From the NCBI GenBank assembly GCA_004524445.1, contig SDNP01000002.1:32001-96000 (forward strand): a stretch of DNA of 64,000 nucleotides, written 5' to 3'. The notes beneath the pieces were generated by a model. It had not been told where the DNA came from and did no database searches. It worked only from the letters and a program-made list of their open reading frames with translations. The translations under genes and the position numbers were made by a program. This document shows, in pieces, positions 53,020 through 63,747 of this stretch; the first letter of the stretch is position 1; each line of letters starts with the position of its first letter. This DNA is from Candidatus Thorarchaeota archaeon. GTDB taxonomy: Archaea; Asgardarchaeota; Thorarchaeia; Thorarchaeales; Thorarchaeaceae.

Positions 53020-53417
53020 TGTGAATGGCGCCATTTTTGTGAATATAATATGGCATAAGAACCCCATTTGTCTTTTTTTCATAATAGCAGCCCTCATAAC
53101 TCCGTTCATACATGTGAATAAAGACACCCCTTCGTTTCCACTGGAGATTAGTAATTAGAGATATGAATAACACTAGACCGTATTCACAAGGGTAATAACC
53201 ATGTGAATAGCACTTAAATTGGAGAAATATCCTTAAAACACCAAATAAGAGTTATGAGCGCTTTATATTTTTAAATAATATCAAAGAGGGGCAAAAATCT
53301 TCTAAATAATAGTTTAGAAGCTAATAAAGCTGTATCAGGTAATATCTTGACCTTATGTGTATATAGTGGATTCACATACTCACACTTATTTGGATTCTAA
53401 CGCTTCCAAATGTGAAT
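53020..53417. repeat. Seven TGTGAAT/ATTCACA heptamers
   Basis: Exact copies at 53020, 53038, 53113, 53182(rc), 53202, 53370(rc), 53411. Confidence 0.85.
53127..53146 (-). promoter_or_regulatory. Origin recognition box (ORB)
   Basis: CTCCAGTGGAAACGAAGGGG on minus strand, matching the canonical ORB with G-string. Confidence 0.8.
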
Positions 53418-53465: not shown

Positions 53466-54092
53466 GTGAGCGAAGAAATTCGAACAAATTACATCTACGA
53501 GTTCACCTATGGATCCGGACCAGGGATGAAAGAAATTTTTCGGTGCAAATATGTTTCGCCAGATGAAGCTCTAAAGCGTTTCAAAAAGATAGTATCAGTT
53601 ACAGAATCTCCCTTTGATTTCAAGATAGTAATATCTTCAGAAACTACTGGAGAAGAGTCTAGCTTTCAGGTCAAAGGCGATATCGATGAGATGATTCAAA
53701 AATTCAAAGTATTTCTAGAAACAAGCACGGGATATAGCTTTCCCGAAACCAAAATCGATGCATCATCGACAAGTTCGCCTGAGCTGGATTTCGAAGCTAT
53801 GAGCAATTATGAGAAGATGCAGGTTGTAATCTATGCATCATTTAAGCATGGGAAATTCTCTTCTCTTGATGTAGCTGAAATTTATGAAAGCACTTTCAAT
53901 GAGTCACTTCCAAAGAGTACAGCATCCACTTATCTTGCTAGGATGTGGGATGAGGGAGAAGGGCATCTGGAGAGATATGGAAATCGCTCGGGCTATACAT
54001 ATCGACTGAAGACCGAATTGAAAGAAACTCAAAGGGAAGTGGAGAGGTCTGAAGAAATTCTTTCAATGATTCACTTGCAAGTAGGCAAATAG
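53466..54092 (+). CDS. Protein with C-terminal winged helix-turn-helix
   Basis: FSSLDVAEIY..STASTYLARM..LERYGNRSGYTYRL. Confidence 0.75.
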   Translation: MSEEIRTNYIYEFTYGSGPGMKEIFRCKYVSPDEALKRFKKIVSVTESPFDFKIVISSETTGEESSFQVKGDIDEMIQKFKVFLETSTGYSFPETKIDASSTSSPELDFEAMSNYEKMQVVIYASFKHGKFSSLDVAEIYESTFNESLPKSTASTYLARMWDEGEGHLERYGNRSGYTYRLKTELKETQREVERSEEILSMIHLQVGK

Positions 54093-56761: not shown

Positions 56762-56892
56762 GCCTCCTGAATAGAAGTTTTCCTCGGTCCGAACGGGTGA
56801 GCGACCCTACTTGTCCTTTAAGCTTTCCATCGAGGAGTCATATTACAAACTAAGAAATTGAGAACATGTGTTCTAGTTTCTAGTGAAAGTTC

Positions 56893-57183
56893 TTGGCATA
56901 TTTGTACATCTATGATTGTGTTGCGGCCAGAGAGAGCAACGCCAGAAGAGTGTCCTTCACAAAGGAGCTCTACGGATTCACCTATTCCTGGAAGACCAAA
57001 TCAGGTATGAAGACGAAAAGAAAGATTGGACTCATTGAGGAGTGTATGGGAGCTGAGCCAGTCACAGACTCTGCCATTCTAGTCCCCGATAGCTGCAAGG
57101 ATCAATTTGACGAACTCTTTGTATATTATCGGGATATACTAAAAATCAAAATCTTCAAAGTGGAGTCAGAAGTATATTTGTAA
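56893..57183 (+). CDS. Small Cas2/VapD-like ferredoxin-fold protein, no CRISPR context
   Basis: YLYIYD..RR..F.KELYG..DSAILVP pattern. Confidence 0.55.
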   Translation: MAYLYIYDCVAARESNARRVSFTKELYGFTYSWKTKSGMKTKRKIGLIEECMGAEPVTDSAILVPDSCKDQFDELFVYYRDILKIKIFKVESEVYL

Positions 57184-57211
57184 TACAAATAATACATTTT
57201 TGTAGGAACAA

Positions 57212-57441
57212 TAGAACACGTGTTCTAAATCTAACCAGACCCCATTATTTCCAGTGGAAGACAATATAAATTACAAAGAAGATAATTAGTAAAGTATAAA
57301 TAGTAGTATATGTACCCCGATATTATCTCCATTTCTATATATATCATACAACGGGTTCCTGGATCCTCATCCATTTCTATACTTCCAGTGGAAACGAGGG
57401 GGTATATTAGCCAGCGAATATTAACTAGAACACGTGTTCTA
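57212..57441. other. Candidate replication origin (oriC)
   Basis: Inverted ORBs at 57240-57260(-) and 57382-57402(+) flank an AT-rich ~120-bp core. Confidence 0.8.
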
Positions 57442-57526
57442 AGTACTATTCCAGTACCACAACACTGATAGACGATATGAGTGTCGCTGAAATTGTTGGC
57501 ATGATATGCCTTTGGAGAATTAGGTC

Positions 57527-59422
57527 ATGACAAAACCGAAGGACTTGTTGGAAGATAATCCTGGTAAGAGTATTCTATTATTGGCAAACGAAGCCATTGC
57601 AAGGGGAACTCTTGAGGCTGGAGTTAGACTAGTCGCATTGTATCCTGGGACGCCCAGTAGTGAAATTGGAAATAATCTCACCTTCATGGCGCCACATATC
57701 CCGAACTTCTACTTTGAATTCAGCACGAACGAAAAGGTGGCTATGGAGGTTGCTGGTTCTGCTGCAGTAGCCGGGGTTCGCTCAATGATGGTCTGCAAGG
57801 GACCGGGTCTCAATGTAGCAGCAGACCCGTTTTTCTCCTTGGCCTATGTTGGTGTCCGAGGGGGAATGGTTATCGTTGTTGCAGACGACCCCAGTATGTG
57901 GAGTTCACAGAATGAAAATGACAGTCGGTATTATGCACTGATGGGTAATATGCCCATGATGGAACCCTCAGATCCTGCAGAGGCAAAATCAATGCTTCTT
58001 GAAGCCTACAAATTTTCAGAGAGTCTAGAGCTTCCGGTATTATTTAGGACCACAACTCGTGTAAATCATACTCGTGCCCCTGTAGTATTGGGGCCCATTG
58101 AGGATCGGCCAGATAAAGTGGAATTCGAAAAAGAACCAACTCGATTTGTTCCAGTTCCCTCTGTTGCACGACAACGTCATCCCTGGTTGTTGAAACAAAT
58201 AGACGCCGCAAGAGAATTGTCGGAACAAAGCGAACTGAATTTCGCCGTCGGCGAGGGTGACCTCGGAATCATTACTAGCGGGGTCTCGTACAATTATGTA
58301 ATGGAATCACTTACCCGACTAAATACTAAAGCAGAAATTCTCAAACTTGGCATTACTCATCCTGTACCCGAACGGAAGATCATCGAGTTTCTGAAGCGCC
58401 ATGAGAGCGTTGCTGTGGTGGAAGAGTTAGAACCCTTCATCGAGACTCATGCTCGTCGACTGTCTAATCTACATGACCTATCCAATGTTGAAATTCTAGG
58501 AAAGGAACAAGGATACTTCCCAAGAGTGTATGAATACACTCCCAAAATAGTTACCGAAGGACTAGCAAAAATACTAGACAAAGAATTACCCGTAGATTGG
58601 AAGCATTTAGATACACTCAGCGAAGAGATTCCTGATCTCCCTCCGCGACCACCTCTGTTGTGTGCCGGCTGTCCGCACCGAGCGTCATATTTTGCTATCA
58701 GAACCGCCACTCGCGGAAAAGCAATCTATCCATCTGACATAGGATGCTATACACTTAGCATTGCACCACCATTAGAAACCGCCGACATATTGTTTGACAT
58801 GGGGTCTTCTATCAGCACAGCATGTGGATTATCTCAAGTGACTGGACAAGAAGTTGTTGCGAGTATTGGAGATAGTACTTTCTTTGCTTCAGGTCTGCCT
58901 GGCATCGTCAATGCCGTATATAATGGCCATCCGATTAGCCTAGTAGTCCTTGATAACCGAACGACAGCCATGACTGGTCATCAACCACACCCGGGGACAG
59001 GAGTCACCGGTATGCAGGAGAAGGTTGAACCACTAGACATTGAAGGAGTCTGCAAGGGACTGGGTGTCAAATACACCAAAACAGTGGACCCCTTTGAGCC
59101 ACTTGCCGATCTTGTGGCTGAAGTACGTAAAATGGTTGAATGGGTCAGGGAGAATAAGGCACCGGCTGTCCTAGTATCCAAAGCACCATGTGCTTTACTC
59201 ACGGCTGCAGAACGACGTCGAACCCAAGAGCAACCAGAGCCATACTTTGTGGATTCGGAGATGTGTACAGGATGCAAACGATGTCTCAACAGATTTGCCT
59301 GTCCTGCTATGTATTGGGACTCAGAAACAGAGAAGGCTGCCATTGATGAAACACTCTGTAATCTATGTGGGAGTTGTGTATCTGTCTGTCCTCAAGGGGC
59401 CATAGTACAGAAGGAGGAATGA
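57527..59422 (+). CDS. iorA: Indolepyruvate:ferredoxin oxidoreductase alpha
   Basis: YPGTPSSE, NEKVA, CAGCPHR, DIGCY, TAMTG, two 4Fe-4S motifs. Confidence 0.95.
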   Translation: MTKPKDLLEDNPGKSILLLANEAIARGTLEAGVRLVALYPGTPSSEIGNNLTFMAPHIPNFYFEFSTNEKVAMEVAGSAAVAGVRSMMVCKGPGLNVAADPFFSLAYVGVRGGMVIVVADDPSMWSSQNENDSRYYALMGNMPMMEPSDPAEAKSMLLEAYKFSESLELPVLFRTTTRVNHTRAPVVLGPIEDRPDKVEFEKEPTRFVPVPSVARQRHPWLLKQIDAARELSEQSELNFAVGEGDLGIITSGVSYNYVMESLTRLNTKAEILKLGITHPVPERKIIEFLKRHESVAVVEELEPFIETHARRLSNLHDLSNVEILGKEQGYFPRVYEYTPKIVTEGLAKILDKELPVDWKHLDTLSEEIPDLPPRPPLLCAGCPHRASYFAIRTATRGKAIYPSDIGCYTLSIAPPLETADILFDMGSSISTACGLSQVTGQEVVASIGDSTFFASGLPGIVNAVYNGHPISLVVLDNRTTAMTGHQPHPGTGVTGMQEKVEPLDIEGVCKGLGVKYTKTVDPFEPLADLVAEVRKMVEWVRENKAPAVLVSKAPCALLTAAERRRTQEQPEPYFVDSEMCTGCKRCLNRFACPAMYWDSETEKAAIDETLCNLCGSCVSVCPQGAIVQKEE

Positions 59423-59425
59423 AAA

Positions 59426-60037
59426 ATGAGTGGTAATACTAGTAATACAGACACTGTTGATATTGTAATCTCTGGCGTTGGAGGACAGGGAGTCTTGACC
59501 CTGGCAGAAATCTTGGCGAAGGCAGCACTAGCCGAGTCCAAAAATGTTAGAGTTGGAGAAATACATGGGATGGCTCAACGTGGGGGTCACGTCATCTGTA
59601 CAGTTCGTATCGGACCTGATGTAAGTGGACCTATTGTTGATCCCGGTACAGCAGACATCTTAGTTGGTTTCGAACCAATTGAAACGCTGCGAGAGATAGA
59701 AAGCATAAGTAAGGACGGCAAAGTACTCATGAACTCAAATGTCCTTCATCCCGTAGCAGTATCAATGGGCAAAGCTGAATATCCAAAACATGCTGACATT
59801 GTAGAATCGATTAAACCATTCACCAAGAATCTCATACAATTTAATGCAATGAACCTTGCAAAGGAAGCGGGTAGTGATAGGGCAATGAATATGGTCATGT
59901 TTGGTGCAGTCATTGCACTTAACCTCACAGGCATATCAACAAACACAGCAAAGAAGACCATTAGAAACACATTCCCCGGGCGCTATGAGGACATCAACAT
60001 CCGCGCTTTCGAATCTGGAATGAAGCAAATCAATTAA
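59426..60037 (+). CDS. iorB: Indolepyruvate:ferredoxin oxidoreductase beta
   Basis: GVGGQG, HGMAQRGG. Confidence 0.93.
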   Translation: MSGNTSNTDTVDIVISGVGGQGVLTLAEILAKAALAESKNVRVGEIHGMAQRGGHVICTVRIGPDVSGPIVDPGTADILVGFEPIETLREIESISKDGKVLMNSNVLHPVAVSMGKAEYPKHADIVESIKPFTKNLIQFNAMNLAKEAGSDRAMNMVMFGAVIALNLTGISTNTAKKTIRNTFPGRYEDINIRAFESGMKQIN

Positions 60038-60088
60038 TAGCACCAAACATCTGTTCAGGACCAGATAATTTTTGTATTATTTGTAATA

Positions 60089-62455
60089 CTATCTTGTAAG
60101 TCTGCTTGCTGCAACTGCCACTTGCCCAACTGAAATACCACCATCTCCAGGGGGAATTGAGTCTTGAAGGAGAGGCTCAAGCCCATGACGATTCAATTCG
60201 GCTATTATTGCTCTTGTGATAATTCTATTCAAGGCAACTCCACCAGAAAATCCAACCTGTCGTATGCCATGATTATCAGCCGCTTGAGCTGCAATTCTGG
60301 CAAGCCCCCTTCCTACTGCTTGTTGTACTGCCATGGCCAGGTGTGATCTCTTTTCTCCTTGTTCTTTCATTTCAAGGAGTCGAAGAAGAAGATGCTCTGT
60401 GTCAAGCTGAGGACTTCCATTTGGTGATACTATATGTGGCTCAATTGATAGCTTTGTTGGCACAGCAACTGCTTCCAGTTTCATTGGACACTCCCCATCA
60501 TAGCTATTCTGGAAACATACTCCAAGAGCAAATGCAGCTGCATCTAGCACACGACCGGTACTGCTACTCTCAATCGTGTTTATATTTTTGTCAAGGGCAA
60601 TGAGCATCTGCTCGAAGGATTCCTCATTCATGCATATATCAGCTGCAACTTCTACATCTCGGACGTACCCAAACAACTCCTCTCTGCTTAACGAACCTCC
60701 TACGATTCCCATAAACGGTCGTGCCGCATATTTTGCTGATAGATCTCCACCAACATACAACTGAGGAGTCAAACCTCCAAACTTGGAGAAATGCCTCCCA
60801 TTCCCAACTAGGACTTCTCCTCCCCATGCTTCGCCATTAGGCCCGTAGCCATAACCATCGGCTGTAATACAGATAATACTTGTATCAGTCGTTAGTTTGT
60901 TATCAACTAGGATGGAAGCCAAATGAGCATGGTGATGCTGAACTTGGACCAAGGGAATATCCTTCTCTTGGGAGATGCGCCTTGCAAGATCAGTACTGAG
61001 AAACTCAGGATGTAAATCACAAGCAATACCATCAAGTTTCTCGACGCCAATGAGACTCATCAGATGTTGATACGCATCCCTAAGAAATTGAATATTCTCT
61101 AATTGGTCCGTATCACCAATGTATTGAGTAGGATATATGCTAGTTGCCTTCAGAATTGACGCGGTAGCTTTTTCTTCTGGACCCGTAGCAACAAGATTAA
61201 GACCATCACCAGGATAAGAAATTGGAATTGGTTCTGGCACATAACCTCTCGATCGTCTTATGAAGACAGAATTTTCATTAGTTACGTACTTGATTACAGA
61301 ATCATCAGCTCTTTGCCATATTCTTCTATCATGTACCAAGAAGTAGTCTGCAATCCCAGAGAGGTCTTTTCGCATTTTCTTTGGATCGATGTACATCGGT
61401 ATGCCAGTAGGGTTGGCACTTGTCAAAACAATGGCAGGTTCATCCATATAATGAAAGAGGAGATGATGAGAAGGAGCGTAGGGGAGCATAACACCTACGG
61501 TGTCCAGTCCGGGAGCTATGCTATCCAATGAATCTCGTGGTATTATATTCAACGCATTTTGTGACTCTCTTTTTCTAACAAGGACAATAGGACGTCTCCA
61601 CGAAAGAAGATCGTCTAATTCGTTCTCCGACGGATTGAAAGCAGACTCAACAATTGACTTGTTTCTGGCCATAATTGCGAACGGCCGCTGCTCTCTCATC
61701 TTCAATAAACGAAGTCTATTGATTGGCCTCGAGTTTCTAACCGCAGTGGCTAGATGAGTACCGGATATGCCTTGTACTGCCACGATTGACCCCGACTCTA
61801 TTAGCTCTGCCGCACTTTTCACTGCATTTTCTTTGGCAATATTGTTGCCCCTATCATTGAAAAGCTGGTATGTAGGACCACACTCCTCACATGCTGTTGT
61901 CTGTGCATGATATCTTCTATCCAACGGGTCTGTATAACCGGTATTACAAGTATTACATAACGGAAAATCAACCATGGTTGTGTGAGGTCTATCGTATGGA
62001 AGATCAGTGATAGTAGAGTATCTTGGTCCGCAAGCTGCACACGAAATGAATGGATAGAGATACCATCTCGATTGAGGATCGAATAGCTCTTCAACACAAG
62101 TGTCACAGATCGAAATGTCGGGTGGAATCACTGGTTCCGCGTTACCAGTTTTTTTTGCAGAGGATTTGATTATGGAAAAATCGTCGAATGAGTTCTGCTT
62201 TGGCAACCATTCTGTGTCCAGTTGTTCAATTCTTGAAATGGATGGAGGGTTCTCTTTCAACTCATTAAGCAAAGACTTGATTCTTGTCTTCTTTCCTTCG
62301 ACAACAATCTCAACACCTGCATCTCCTAGATTCAAAACATATCCTTTCAAGGATAGTCCCTTTGCCACTCGATATACAAATGGTCTAAATCCCACACCTT
62401 GTACAATTCCATTGATGTGGATTTTAGCTCTGACACTCAGTTTATGAAACCTCAC
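60089..62455 (-). CDS. hypF: Hydrogenase maturation carbamoyltransferase HypF
   Basis: VQGVGFRP, two Zn fingers, QHHHAH, GDGGISVGQ. Confidence 0.96.
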   Translation of the reverse strand: MRFHKLSVRAKIHINGIVQGVGFRPFVYRVAKGLSLKGYVLNLGDAGVEIVVEGKKTRIKSLLNELKENPPSISRIEQLDTEWLPKQNSFDDFSIIKSSAKKTGNAEPVIPPDISICDTCVEELFDPQSRWYLYPFISCAACGPRYSTITDLPYDRPHTTMVDFPLCNTCNTGYTDPLDRRYHAQTTACEECGPTYQLFNDRGNNIAKENAVKSAAELIESGSIVAVQGISGTHLATAVRNSRPINRLRLLKMREQRPFAIMARNKSIVESAFNPSENELDDLLSWRRPIVLVRKRESQNALNIIPRDSLDSIAPGLDTVGVMLPYAPSHHLLFHYMDEPAIVLTSANPTGIPMYIDPKKMRKDLSGIADYFLVHDRRIWQRADDSVIKYVTNENSVFIRRSRGYVPEPIPISYPGDGLNLVATGPEEKATASILKATSIYPTQYIGDTDQLENIQFLRDAYQHLMSLIGVEKLDGIACDLHPEFLSTDLARRISQEKDIPLVQVQHHHAHLASILVDNKLTTDTSIICITADGYGYGPNGEAWGGEVLVGNGRHFSKFGGLTPQLYVGGDLSAKYAARPFMGIVGGSLSREELFGYVRDVEVAADICMNEESFEQMLIALDKNINTIESSSTGRVLDAAAFALGVCFQNSYDGECPMKLEAVAVPTKLSIEPHIVSPNGSPQLDTEHLLLRLLEMKEQGEKRSHLAMAVQQAVGRGLARIAAQAADNHGIRQVGFSGGVALNRIITRAIIAELNRHGLEPLLQDSIPPGDGGISVGQVAVAASRLTR

Positions 62456-62598
62456 TGTTCTGAATTCGTGTTATCGATATTAATACCATGAAGTGGCAAA
62501 TAATCTCTGTATCGATATAATTGTATTACAAGTATTACAATTAGCAATCGACACTCACAGGTAGGTTTTCTTAAGGCATGGCACATACCCAATTGTGA

Positions 62599-63021
62599 AT
62601 GACATTGACTTCCTCAAGGACACCTCATCCGAAACCGGGGAGAGAACCCATAGCTACCCCCTCAATCCTCGCAAACATTCCCGACTGTCTTCGGCAAATA
62701 CTTGTCGAGGCCGCTGATAACTCAAAGAAGAGAAAGAAATCAATTCTGATATCTAGTAATAGTTTGGCTAATAGATTCATTCTAGAACGATGGGGAATAC
62801 GACCATCTCAGCGCAGGAAATTCAGAAATCTATTTTCACAAATTCGCAAACACTGTAGGAAGATATTCGATCATCTTCTCAATAGGAAAAGAATGGAATT
62901 CGATATGAATTTGAATCGTTATTTGTTTGGAATCTACAAGTTCGATGAAATCCGCGGAAACACAATCCTTGCTTTTGTACAAGTTCCTGAGAGAGAAGGA
63001 TGGACACTTCCCTGCAAGTAA
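62599..63021 (+). CDS. Basic hypothetical protein, possible DNA binder
   Basis: K/R-rich helices followed by a beta-hairpin-like end. Confidence 0.6.
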   Translation: MTLTSSRTPHPKPGREPIATPSILANIPDCLRQILVEAADNSKKRKKSILISSNSLANRFILERWGIRPSQRRKFRNLFSQIRKHCRKIFDHLLNRKRMEFDMNLNRYLFGIYKFDEIRGNTILAFVQVPEREGWTLPCK

Positions 63022-63198
63022 TATGTGTAATACAGTGAAACCTAAGCAAAATCTTTATCCACTATTCGGCGTATACAAAAACGTATCCGTAGAGAGTAAC
63101 AGAAAACCGATTTGACAAAGTCCTCTCATAACTCTTTAAAATAGAAAATAGAGGATTATGAGCCCTTTTCAAAAAACCTCGTTCTCTCCAAAAATCAG

Positions 63199-63747
63199 GT
63201 GGAGATTATGACTCAAGGCACCAACGACGTGAATTTCGAGAAGATAAGGAAGGCTTCCCAGGGCACCAAGAGAGTGCTAAGGGAACCAATCATGAAGTCA
63301 TTACTACAAAATTCCCTCCTCACGGAAACGCAACTAGAAACGCTCCTAATTGATTTGCTTGTCGAAGACAATTTCGGTAAGCACATTCCGTATGATACGA
63401 AGGCCTCACTGCGTACAACTGAAAATGGCAAGGGTGTTTCTAGAGGAGCATTCAATAGGACACTTCAACAAGCTCGCGAAAATATTACAAAAAGCATCTA
63501 CACCATGCTTCTGTTAGGATACCTTGGTCTATTTGAAATTGCCATATTTCGGCCATTTGAAGAAGTTGCAGCCAAGATAGGCGACTATAGACATATCAGG
63601 GAGGTATTGGCAGGAAGAGAAAAGTTAACAGAAGAGGATCTTGAGAGTCATAGGGCCGCAGAAGAAACAATCATTTCTGCACTCCATGAGCTGGCATCGC
63701 CACTGAATCTTAAAACTGAACTATCAAAAGAGACTGGATCTGAATAG
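63199..63747 (+). CDS. Hypothetical protein with sigma4/Tfx-like HTH
   Basis: LTETQLETL..GVSRGAFNRTLQQARENI. Confidence 0.65.
   Translation: MEIMTQGTNDVNFEKIRKASQGTKRVLREPIMKSLLQNSLLTETQLETLLIDLLVEDNFGKHIPYDTKASLRTTENGKGVSRGAFNRTLQQARENITKSIYTMLLLGYLGLFEIAIFRPFEEVAAKIGDYRHIREVLAGREKLTEEDLESHRAAEETIISALHELASPLNLKTELSKETGSE

Follow-up and report, generated by a model that had tools for sequence, protein, structure and literature searches.

A 64,000-nucleotide stretch of a Thorarchaeota genome (the window; C33:32001-96000 in a 90%-complete, 2.79-Mb assembly of 64 contigs) contains the first part of an array of short palindromic DNA boxes that begins at a candidate replication origin, oriC. The clustering of these sites is unique in the genome, and the array is linked to the origin, conserved family-wide and under selection at the level of the DNA itself. 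The boxes very probably form a selected, origin-linked protein-binding array. We give about even credence to the more specific reading that the array is centromere-like and organises the origin, with dimers of a ribbon-helix-helix (RHH) protein binding tandem boxes cooperatively and the tail of this protein coupling them to an Orc/Cdc6-like ATPase. An earlier note on this DNA had proposed an array of binding sites beside the origin for an undescribed protein of origin organisation or segregation; the array itself is well supported by its clustering, origin linkage and conservation, while the role in segregation is one that we infer at most.

Scanning the window with GTAWTAYNNRTAWTAC returned seven matches, against 0.00 expected from dinucleotide-preserving shuffles. 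These are the seven 16-mers listed in the earlier note, each at the position given there, and the scan likewise found no match within the first 57 kb of the window. All 12 exact copies in the assembly (2.79 Mb scanned) lie in C33:89180-104015, as do six of the seven one-mismatch copies, so that the sites occupy a single 15-kb stretch rather than being spread evenly over the genome. Simple arithmetic puts the chance of 11 more sites falling within 15 kb of the first at about 1e-22. Because the assembly-wide matches run to C33:104015, the array, which totals 14 sites when one-mismatch copies are counted (several of them triplets), extends about 8 kb beyond the window end (locus L001). Spacing between sites is mostly 0.5-1 kb and reaches 3 kb, filling the 15 kb from the origin onwards. 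The field is one-sided: it begins at oriC and extends to the PAN gene, with the first box pair 45 nt to the left of the left origin recognition box (ORB) and all remaining sites to its right.

Within the window, the first pair (GTAATAC-AA-ATAATAC; 57180-57195) overlaps the TAA stop codon of a 96-amino-acid (aa) gene that abuts the origin, and the second (59433-59448) lies within iorB at codons 3-8. Pair 3 (60074-60089) sits between the convergent ends of iorB and hypF and touches the hypF stop codon, a position at which a promoter is impossible. Two sites fall within hypF, namely pair 4 (60864-60879), whose orthologous slot is occupied in 13 of 15 relatives, and triplet 5 (61932-61956), which lies in the zinc-finger motif and whose slot is occupied in 12 of 15. 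Pair 6 (62523-62538) is in the divergent intergenic region between hypF and a 140-aa gene, and pair 7 (63018-63033) overlaps the stop codon of that gene, 181 nt upstream of a 182-aa gene. This agrees with the placement reported earlier, with three sites in iorB or hypF, three overlapping or touching stop codons and one intergenic. Neither is the motif confined to promoters across the full array, where five of the 14 sites are intragenic and two lie between convergent gene ends.

The repeating unit is a 7-bp palindromic box, GTAWTAC, arranged at 9-bp pitch in pairs or triplets. The triplets are found at 61932 (reading GTATAAC-CG-GTATTAC-AA-GTATTAC) and at L001 positions 115, 865 and 2423. Across 91 exact sites from relatives the consensus is TT-GTAWTAY-NN-RTAWTAC-AA, together with a weak third box 9 bp upstream. 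In these sites the central W positions are T/A in 39 cases, A/A in 21, T/T in 19 and A/T in 12. Since all four combinations occur, the unit is the 7-bp box and not the 16-bp palindrome of the earlier description, and many sites are in fact direct repeats. Single boxes are common, with about 193 strand-counted copies genome-wide (observed/expected 0.81) and a 16-fold enrichment in the array, whereas tandem pairs are confined to the array. This combination is a signature of cooperative binding by adjacent dimers. Two other readings of the repeats were considered and rejected: that as RNA hairpins, because about 44% of the sites are direct repeats and the loop would be only 2 nt, and that as restriction-modification targets, because the depletion of single boxes is mild (0.81) and pairs occur at one locus only.

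The oriC candidate (57240-57402) consists of two inverted ORBs, each with the core TTCCAGTGGAA and a G-string, flanking an AT-rich core. The right ORB reads CTTCCAGTGGAAACGAGGGGGT, a near match to the archaeal ORB consensus, and the left ORB, on the opposite strand, reads CTTCCACTGGAAATAATGGGGT. That consensus is CTTCCAGTGGAAACGAAAGGGGT (PMC4153887, Table 2, after Pelve et al.). The GTAWTAC boxes show no resemblance to it, whereas the separate ORB pair does match.

Conservation and selection

Exact sites are present in 21 of 24 genomes of the same family, nearly always clustered on one contig. The arrays of relatives comprise 8-18 sites. A reversed-pattern control gave 0-2 matches per genome, and genomes outside the family contain 0-1 exact copies. 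The order of the surrounding genes is conserved: saccharopine dehydrogenase, AlaDH-like, the 96-aa gene, ORB, iorA, iorB, hypF, the 140-aa gene, the 182-aa gene, a HEAT-repeat gene, ACS-alpha, the RHH gene, the AAA+ gene, a 92-aa membrane protein, NAC, Trm5 and PAN. Fourteen Thorarchaeota genomes contain the whole block from the 96-aa gene to PAN, and in these we counted 173 sites inside the block (0.83 per kb) against one site in 75 kb of flanking sequence (0.013 per kb). On the complete 2.58-Mb Thorarchaeota chromosome CP070658.1, 11 of 12 sites (≤1 mismatch) lie within 11.7 kb (1,795,715-1,807,397), and an ORB is found at 1,807,482, where the field ends. The earlier note had asked whether the motif might not be origin-linked in relatives; it is linked, both on this chromosome and in the 14 genomes with a complete block. 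A comparison of co-absence was also attempted and proved uninformative, because the region is simply unassembled in the three family genomes that lack the ATPase (G014, G145 and G182), which either also lack hypF or have a contig end there.

The conservation of synonymous sites, put forward earlier as a check, is strong in hypF, ACS-alpha and the HEAT-repeat gene. The ACS-alpha slot is occupied in 18 of 18 genomes, that in the HEAT-repeat gene in 14 of 14, and the two slots in hypF in 12-13 of 15. All 18 genomes carry the codons GGT-ATT-ATY-AGT-AAT-ACA in ACS-alpha, the spacer position excepted, while glycine codons nearby vary freely. Where the amino acid is invariant, the codon is invariant as well at 5 of 11 positions in boxes compared to 12 of 1558 elsewhere (Fisher p = 3.5e-8). 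At third positions the majority base reaches a frequency of 0.92 within boxes, compared with 0.64 for the spacers and 0.51 for all other positions (Mann-Whitney p = 7e-16). The effect reaches the protein sequences themselves. Between genomes the HEAT-repeat protein shares only about 30% identity, and its sole conserved peptide in this region, VLSV(I/L)(Q/P)VS, is the translation of the boxes. The zinc-finger stretch of HypF reads C-N-T-C-N-T-G-Y-T where boxes are present and C-S-E-C-A-T-E-Y-N in the one genome that is free of them. The array provides a clear example from nature in which a signal in the DNA takes precedence over the choice of codon, and even of amino acid, in conserved enzymes, as exemplified by the HypF zinc-finger motif and by the conserved peptide in an otherwise poorly conserved HEAT-repeat protein.

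Candidate readers of the boxes

In every relative examined, an RHH-like gene and an AAA+ gene form a two-gene unit in the middle of the array. In the genome under study this unit is on the minus strand and lies outside the window, past its end. The AAA+ ATPase (324 aa; L001:3223-4197, equivalent to C33:99223-100197) is encoded by a single-copy gene and is 76-98% identical across Thorarchaeota genera, a degree of conservation equal to that of PAN. The best structural matches to its predicted model (pLDDT 88) are archaeal Orc/Cdc6 proteins (1w5t, 1fnn and 2qby), followed by TnsC, but it has no winged-helix domain. Its Walker B motif is of an unusual form, hhhh-E/D-D (FIED here).

In the partner protein (96 aa; L001:2932-3222) the N-terminal peptide SLLGKYRK is conserved, and a variable, charged linker separates it from a C-terminal segment in which SPIMSFSVSTDL precedes two helices. 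This last segment is a candidate ribbon-helix-helix pattern, as judged from the sequence and from a structural model, and the tailed RHH protein is the most likely reader of the boxes. The proteins encoded within the window at 62599, 63199, 56893 and 53466, which had been proposed as binders, are accordingly placed behind it. A second candidate reader is the 182-aa protein (63199-63747, plus strand), which has a sigma-70 region 4-like helix (an Atlas lead only) and whose gene is found beside the AAA+ and RHH genes across Asgard families; it had no match in Pfam or NCBIfam. The 140-aa protein (62599-63021, plus strand) is basic and its gene is bracketed by boxes. It too was without a match in Pfam or NCBIfam and, since it is found in Thorarchaeota only, it is not the general reader.

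Asgard families in which the ATPase homologue is 25-47% identical retain the neighbourhood of ORB, 96-aa gene, AAA+ gene, RHH gene, 182-aa gene and hypF, and in the closed genome of another Asgard family this neighbourhood directly adjoins cdc6. The box itself differs between families. GTAWTAC at 9 bp is found in family f27 and in families with an SFS or SAT strand in the RHH protein; families f19 and f7, in which the strand is the Arc-like NFNVR, have pairs of GATATC at about 13 bp (12-14). In one closed 3.58-Mb genome (G060), nine of the ten GATATC pairs fall within an 11.4-kb segment that surrounds the ORB, cdc6 and the two genes for the ATPase and the RHH protein. The GATATC-pair fields of these other families are at L029 (G060:C1:1636680-1648120), L030 and L032. 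Such co-variation of strand and box fits the RHH protein as a putative reader. In G025 (the sister family f2) no GTAWTAC pairs were found, though the RHH protein is 44% identical, and a de novo motif search in f2 (G025) and f3 gave nothing convincing. Many TGTGAATA repeats surround an ORB in G025 (L025:2700-3130), some of them in tandem at 9-10-bp pitch, and these may be the counterpart of the boxes in that genome.

Proposed function and its rivals

In the arrangement that we envisage, each GTAWTAC heptamer would be one two-fold symmetric box for a symmetric dimeric DNA-binding protein, and two or three boxes at exactly 9-bp pitch would make up one cooperative docking site. The tail of the RHH protein would act on the neighbouring AAA+ ATPase, which is Orc/Cdc6-like but has no winged helix, by recruiting or stimulating it. 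The two would form a nucleoprotein domain alongside the origin by which the origin region is organised or segregated, and the array would work like the chromosomal parS and segS clusters but from different parts. The identity of the reader, the coupling of tail to ATPase and the cellular output are all steps that we infer.

Several points weigh against this centromere-like arrangement. We know of no partition system with an AAA+ ATPase, and centromeres of the RHH type are normally one compact block of repeats, not sites scattered over 15 kb. Replication control is as compatible with an Orc/Cdc6-like partner as segregation is. The assignment of the RHH protein comes from a sequence pattern together with a modelled unit of an extended strand and two helices. 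Its Foldseek hits are all RHH proteins (MatP, Arc, CopA and MazE), none of them significant (E > 4), with MatP the top hit, and searches of Pfam, NCBIfam and PDB sequences left it unmatched. A tblastn search with the RHH domain against a phage collection produced a chance-level match only. Its binding to the boxes, and hence its identity as their reader, is likewise a prediction. The co-variation between RHH strand and motif is confounded by phylogeny, and the HTH-like (helix-turn-helix-like) 182-aa protein co-varies with the motif in the same way. Origin activity, too, is predicted from sequence alone. A prediction of the complex between the AAA+ and RHH proteins scored 0.00, to which we attach no weight either way.

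The array resembles a number of known systems in part. The label of a parS-type array, used in the earlier note, does not hold: no match to ParB_N (PF02195) was found in the 90%-complete assembly, while control genomes do match, and the ParA-type AAA_31 matches are on C61, C48, C16, C62, C49 and C8, with none on C33. Given the lack of ParB_N and the location of the ParA-like genes on other contigs, the array is not a parS array by membership; SMC is present in the genome. As in bacterial ParB-parS clusters, several short symmetric sites, many of them intragenic, lie within about 10-15 kb beside the origin, and as in ParABS the sites are unique to the origin region and conserved among relatives. 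The array sequence, however, is unrelated to parS, and its architecture is one of tandem 7-bp boxes at 9-bp pitch, not of one 16-bp palindrome.

In type Ib and type II plasmid partition, RHH dimers bind repeats cooperatively and a flexible N-terminal RHH tail acts on the NTPase. The centromeres of these systems (ParG-parH, omega heptads and ParR-parC) consist, like the array, of tandem short repeats at fixed pitch, and in both cases the operon is located among its own sites or next to them. The array differs in its motor class, which is AAA+ and neither the ParA-like nor the actin-like NTPase (ParA or ParM) of those systems, in the dispersal of its repeat pairs over 15 kb rather than in one block, and in its chromosomal housekeeping setting. 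In E. coli, MatP, an RHH-containing protein, reads dispersed and often intragenic palindromes that mark one chromosomal domain, as the boxes do here. The matS sites mark the 800-kb terminus domain, and the MatP gene has no adjacent ATPase partner gene. The boxes, by contrast, mark 15 kb at the origin, have a different motif and are accompanied by an adjacent ATPase partner.

The archaeal SegAB-segS system of the Sulfolobales also employs an RHH-type binder with a disordered N-terminal part (10.1101/2025.02.07.637068; PMC12139799), and its short palindromic sites are mostly intragenic and cluster near the operon and, in some species, near an origin. SegA is nonetheless a ParA-type Walker ATPase, as opposed to the Orc/Cdc6-like AAA+ partner here, and the SegB sites (TCTAGA-S-TCTAGA) are scattered chromosome-wide as opposed to forming a single 15-kb field. 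At the level of the box, the array resembles the target of the Sulfolobales RHH regulators aCcr1-3, a 9-bp palindrome with the consensus A(T/G)G(A)TA(G)A(T/G)TACN (PMC9976878, PMC13199686). The aCcr1-box has the identical heptamer GTA(A/T)TAC within its 9 bp, is present once or twice and is read by a small RHH dimer. The boxes described here differ in forming one origin-flanking field with half of its sites outside promoters, and the candidate RHH protein differs from aCcr1-3 in its long tail and its ATPase partner.

This likeness leads to one alternative, namely that an aCcr-like RHH repressor uses the boxes as operators to co-regulate the origin-flanking genes, possibly timed to the cell cycle, with the intragenic sites as by-products or roadblocks. 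The box matches the Sulfolobales aCcr1-box (A-GTAATAC-N, 9 bp), which is bound by small RHH repressors at promoters carrying one or two copies (PMC9976878), and chromatin immunoprecipitation sequencing (ChIP-seq) of aCcr2 and aCcr3 also gave many intragenic sites (PMC13199686). Moreover, four or five of the sites are 50-110 nt upstream of start codons. The RHH domain also resembles the RHH proteins ORF59b and ORF60 of Acidianus two-tailed virus (ATV) in a weak alignment (28% identity over 50 aa, E = 0.17). The viral homologue of aCcr1 is ATV gp29 (PMC9976878), which may be one of these two proteins. In the search for an aCcr1 orthologue the best other match in the genome had E = 0.38, and two of the three basic residues required for aCcr1 binding are not conserved in the RHH protein. 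A role as promoter operators is impossible for seven of the 14 sites, since five are intragenic and two lie between convergent gene ends, and the intragenic slots are held by codon-level selection across genera. All of the genome's sites fall in a single 15-kb block whose housekeeping genes are unrelated in function, and no cell-division or other promoter elsewhere in the genome carries one. On these grounds a local regulon appears improbable.

A role in replication control, in which the boxes would recruit, load or titrate the Orc/Cdc6-like ATPase through an RHH protein that replaces the winged helix, has a real if minor chance of being correct. Such an arrangement would serve to license initiation, to time it or to hold it back, in a manner resembling the bacterial datA and DARS clusters of DnaA boxes or an extended initiation zone. 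In its favour, archaeal Orc/Cdc6 proteins are the nearest structural matches to the partner ATPase, which lacks their DNA-binding winged helix, the array starts exactly at the ORB-flanked unwinding region, and the module stays beside ORBs across Asgard families and beside cdc6 in one. Two canonical Cdc6 genes with winged helices are, however, already present on the same contig, the sites are intragenic and spread over 15 kb rather than concentrated at the unwinding element, and the layout of tail, linker and RHH is typical of partition adaptors. It is hardly credible, finally, that the boxes are a mobile-element remnant, be it the iterons of an integrated plasmid or virus or a domesticated module of the TnsC/MuB type, with no present chromosomal role. 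The ATPase does have TnsC among its better structural matches, and tandem short repeats beside an RHH gene are typical of plasmids. The array nevertheless lies in a housekeeping block (IOR, HypF, ACS, NAC, Trm5 and PAN) whose order is conserved across at least 16 genera, the boxes are under purifying selection at orthologous positions, and the open reading frames examined contained no transposase, integrase or repeat ends. A tblastn search with the RHH domain against a phage collection produced a chance-level match only.

Should the ATPase act as the motor or regulator, then, in the lineage nearest to eukaryotes, the initiator clade of AAA+ proteins would be tied to functions akin to those of centromeres. 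We further consider it possible, with rather less than even confidence, that the array belongs to an unrecognised class of Asgard chromosome-handling systems. Such a class would comprise an ATPase of the Orc/Cdc6 clade without a winged helix, a tailed RHH adaptor and a 10-15-kb field of boxes beside oriC, with box sequence and pitch changing along with the adaptor between families (GTAWTAC at 9 bp as against GATATC at about 13 bp). In these closest archaeal relatives of eukaryotes, it would amount to a fourth class of motor in DNA partition or else to a new level of control over the origin. We found no description of such an array in the literature on Asgard origins and segregation. The locus offers a testable handle in the form of a DNA code (paired GTAWTAC at 9-bp pitch), a short list of candidate readers and a highly conserved Orc/Cdc6-like ATPase, all beside a near-consensus origin.

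Other features of the origin region

Full ORBs, with core and G-string, occur at three places in the assembly, two of them being the oriC pair and the third lying 4 kb to the left (53127-53146, minus strand), upstream of the gene for a 208-aa winged-helix-like protein (53466-54092, plus strand). The winged-helix-like part of this protein is C-terminal and is 44-53% identical to ORB-adjacent proteins in two other Asgard families (G025 and G060). The protein had no match in Pfam or NCBIfam and is a candidate for a conserved origin-linked DNA-binding protein, as suggested by these similarities. The 96-aa gene abutting the origin (56893-57183, plus strand) adjoins ORBs in every Asgard family examined, with 39-94% identity, and no family was found for its product in Pfam or NCBIfam.

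The two canonical Cdc6 genes with winged helices are about 25 kb and about 64 kb away on the same contig. Just upstream of the second are two ORB-core-like elements without a clear G-string (C33:24860-24911 and C33:25864-26139, before the window start), and these may mark a second origin about 64 kb from the oriC candidate in the window. GC skew was tried as a test for the origin and set aside. Its sign changes at the ORB pair on the contig, yet it is uninformative because twenty 20-kb samples across CP070658.1 revealed no chromosome-scale skew and because local skew tracks gene strand.

Both ORBs are bracketed by a 16-bp palindrome, TAGAACACGTGTTCTA (57212-57227 and 57426-57441), which is distinct from the GTAWTAC boxes, and a variant of it is found at 56860-56876, upstream of the origin-abutting 96-aa gene. 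Its core, GAACA[CT]GTGTTC, has four further copies, on C4, C9, C24 and C30, two of which are the full 16-mer. These additional copies on other contigs give TAGAACACGTGTTCTA the look of an operator through which some other factor controls a small regulon. Lastly, heptamers containing GAGAC/GTCTC are the most under-represented in the whole assembly (observed/expected 0.25-0.39), a depletion that suggests a restriction-modification system targeting that site.

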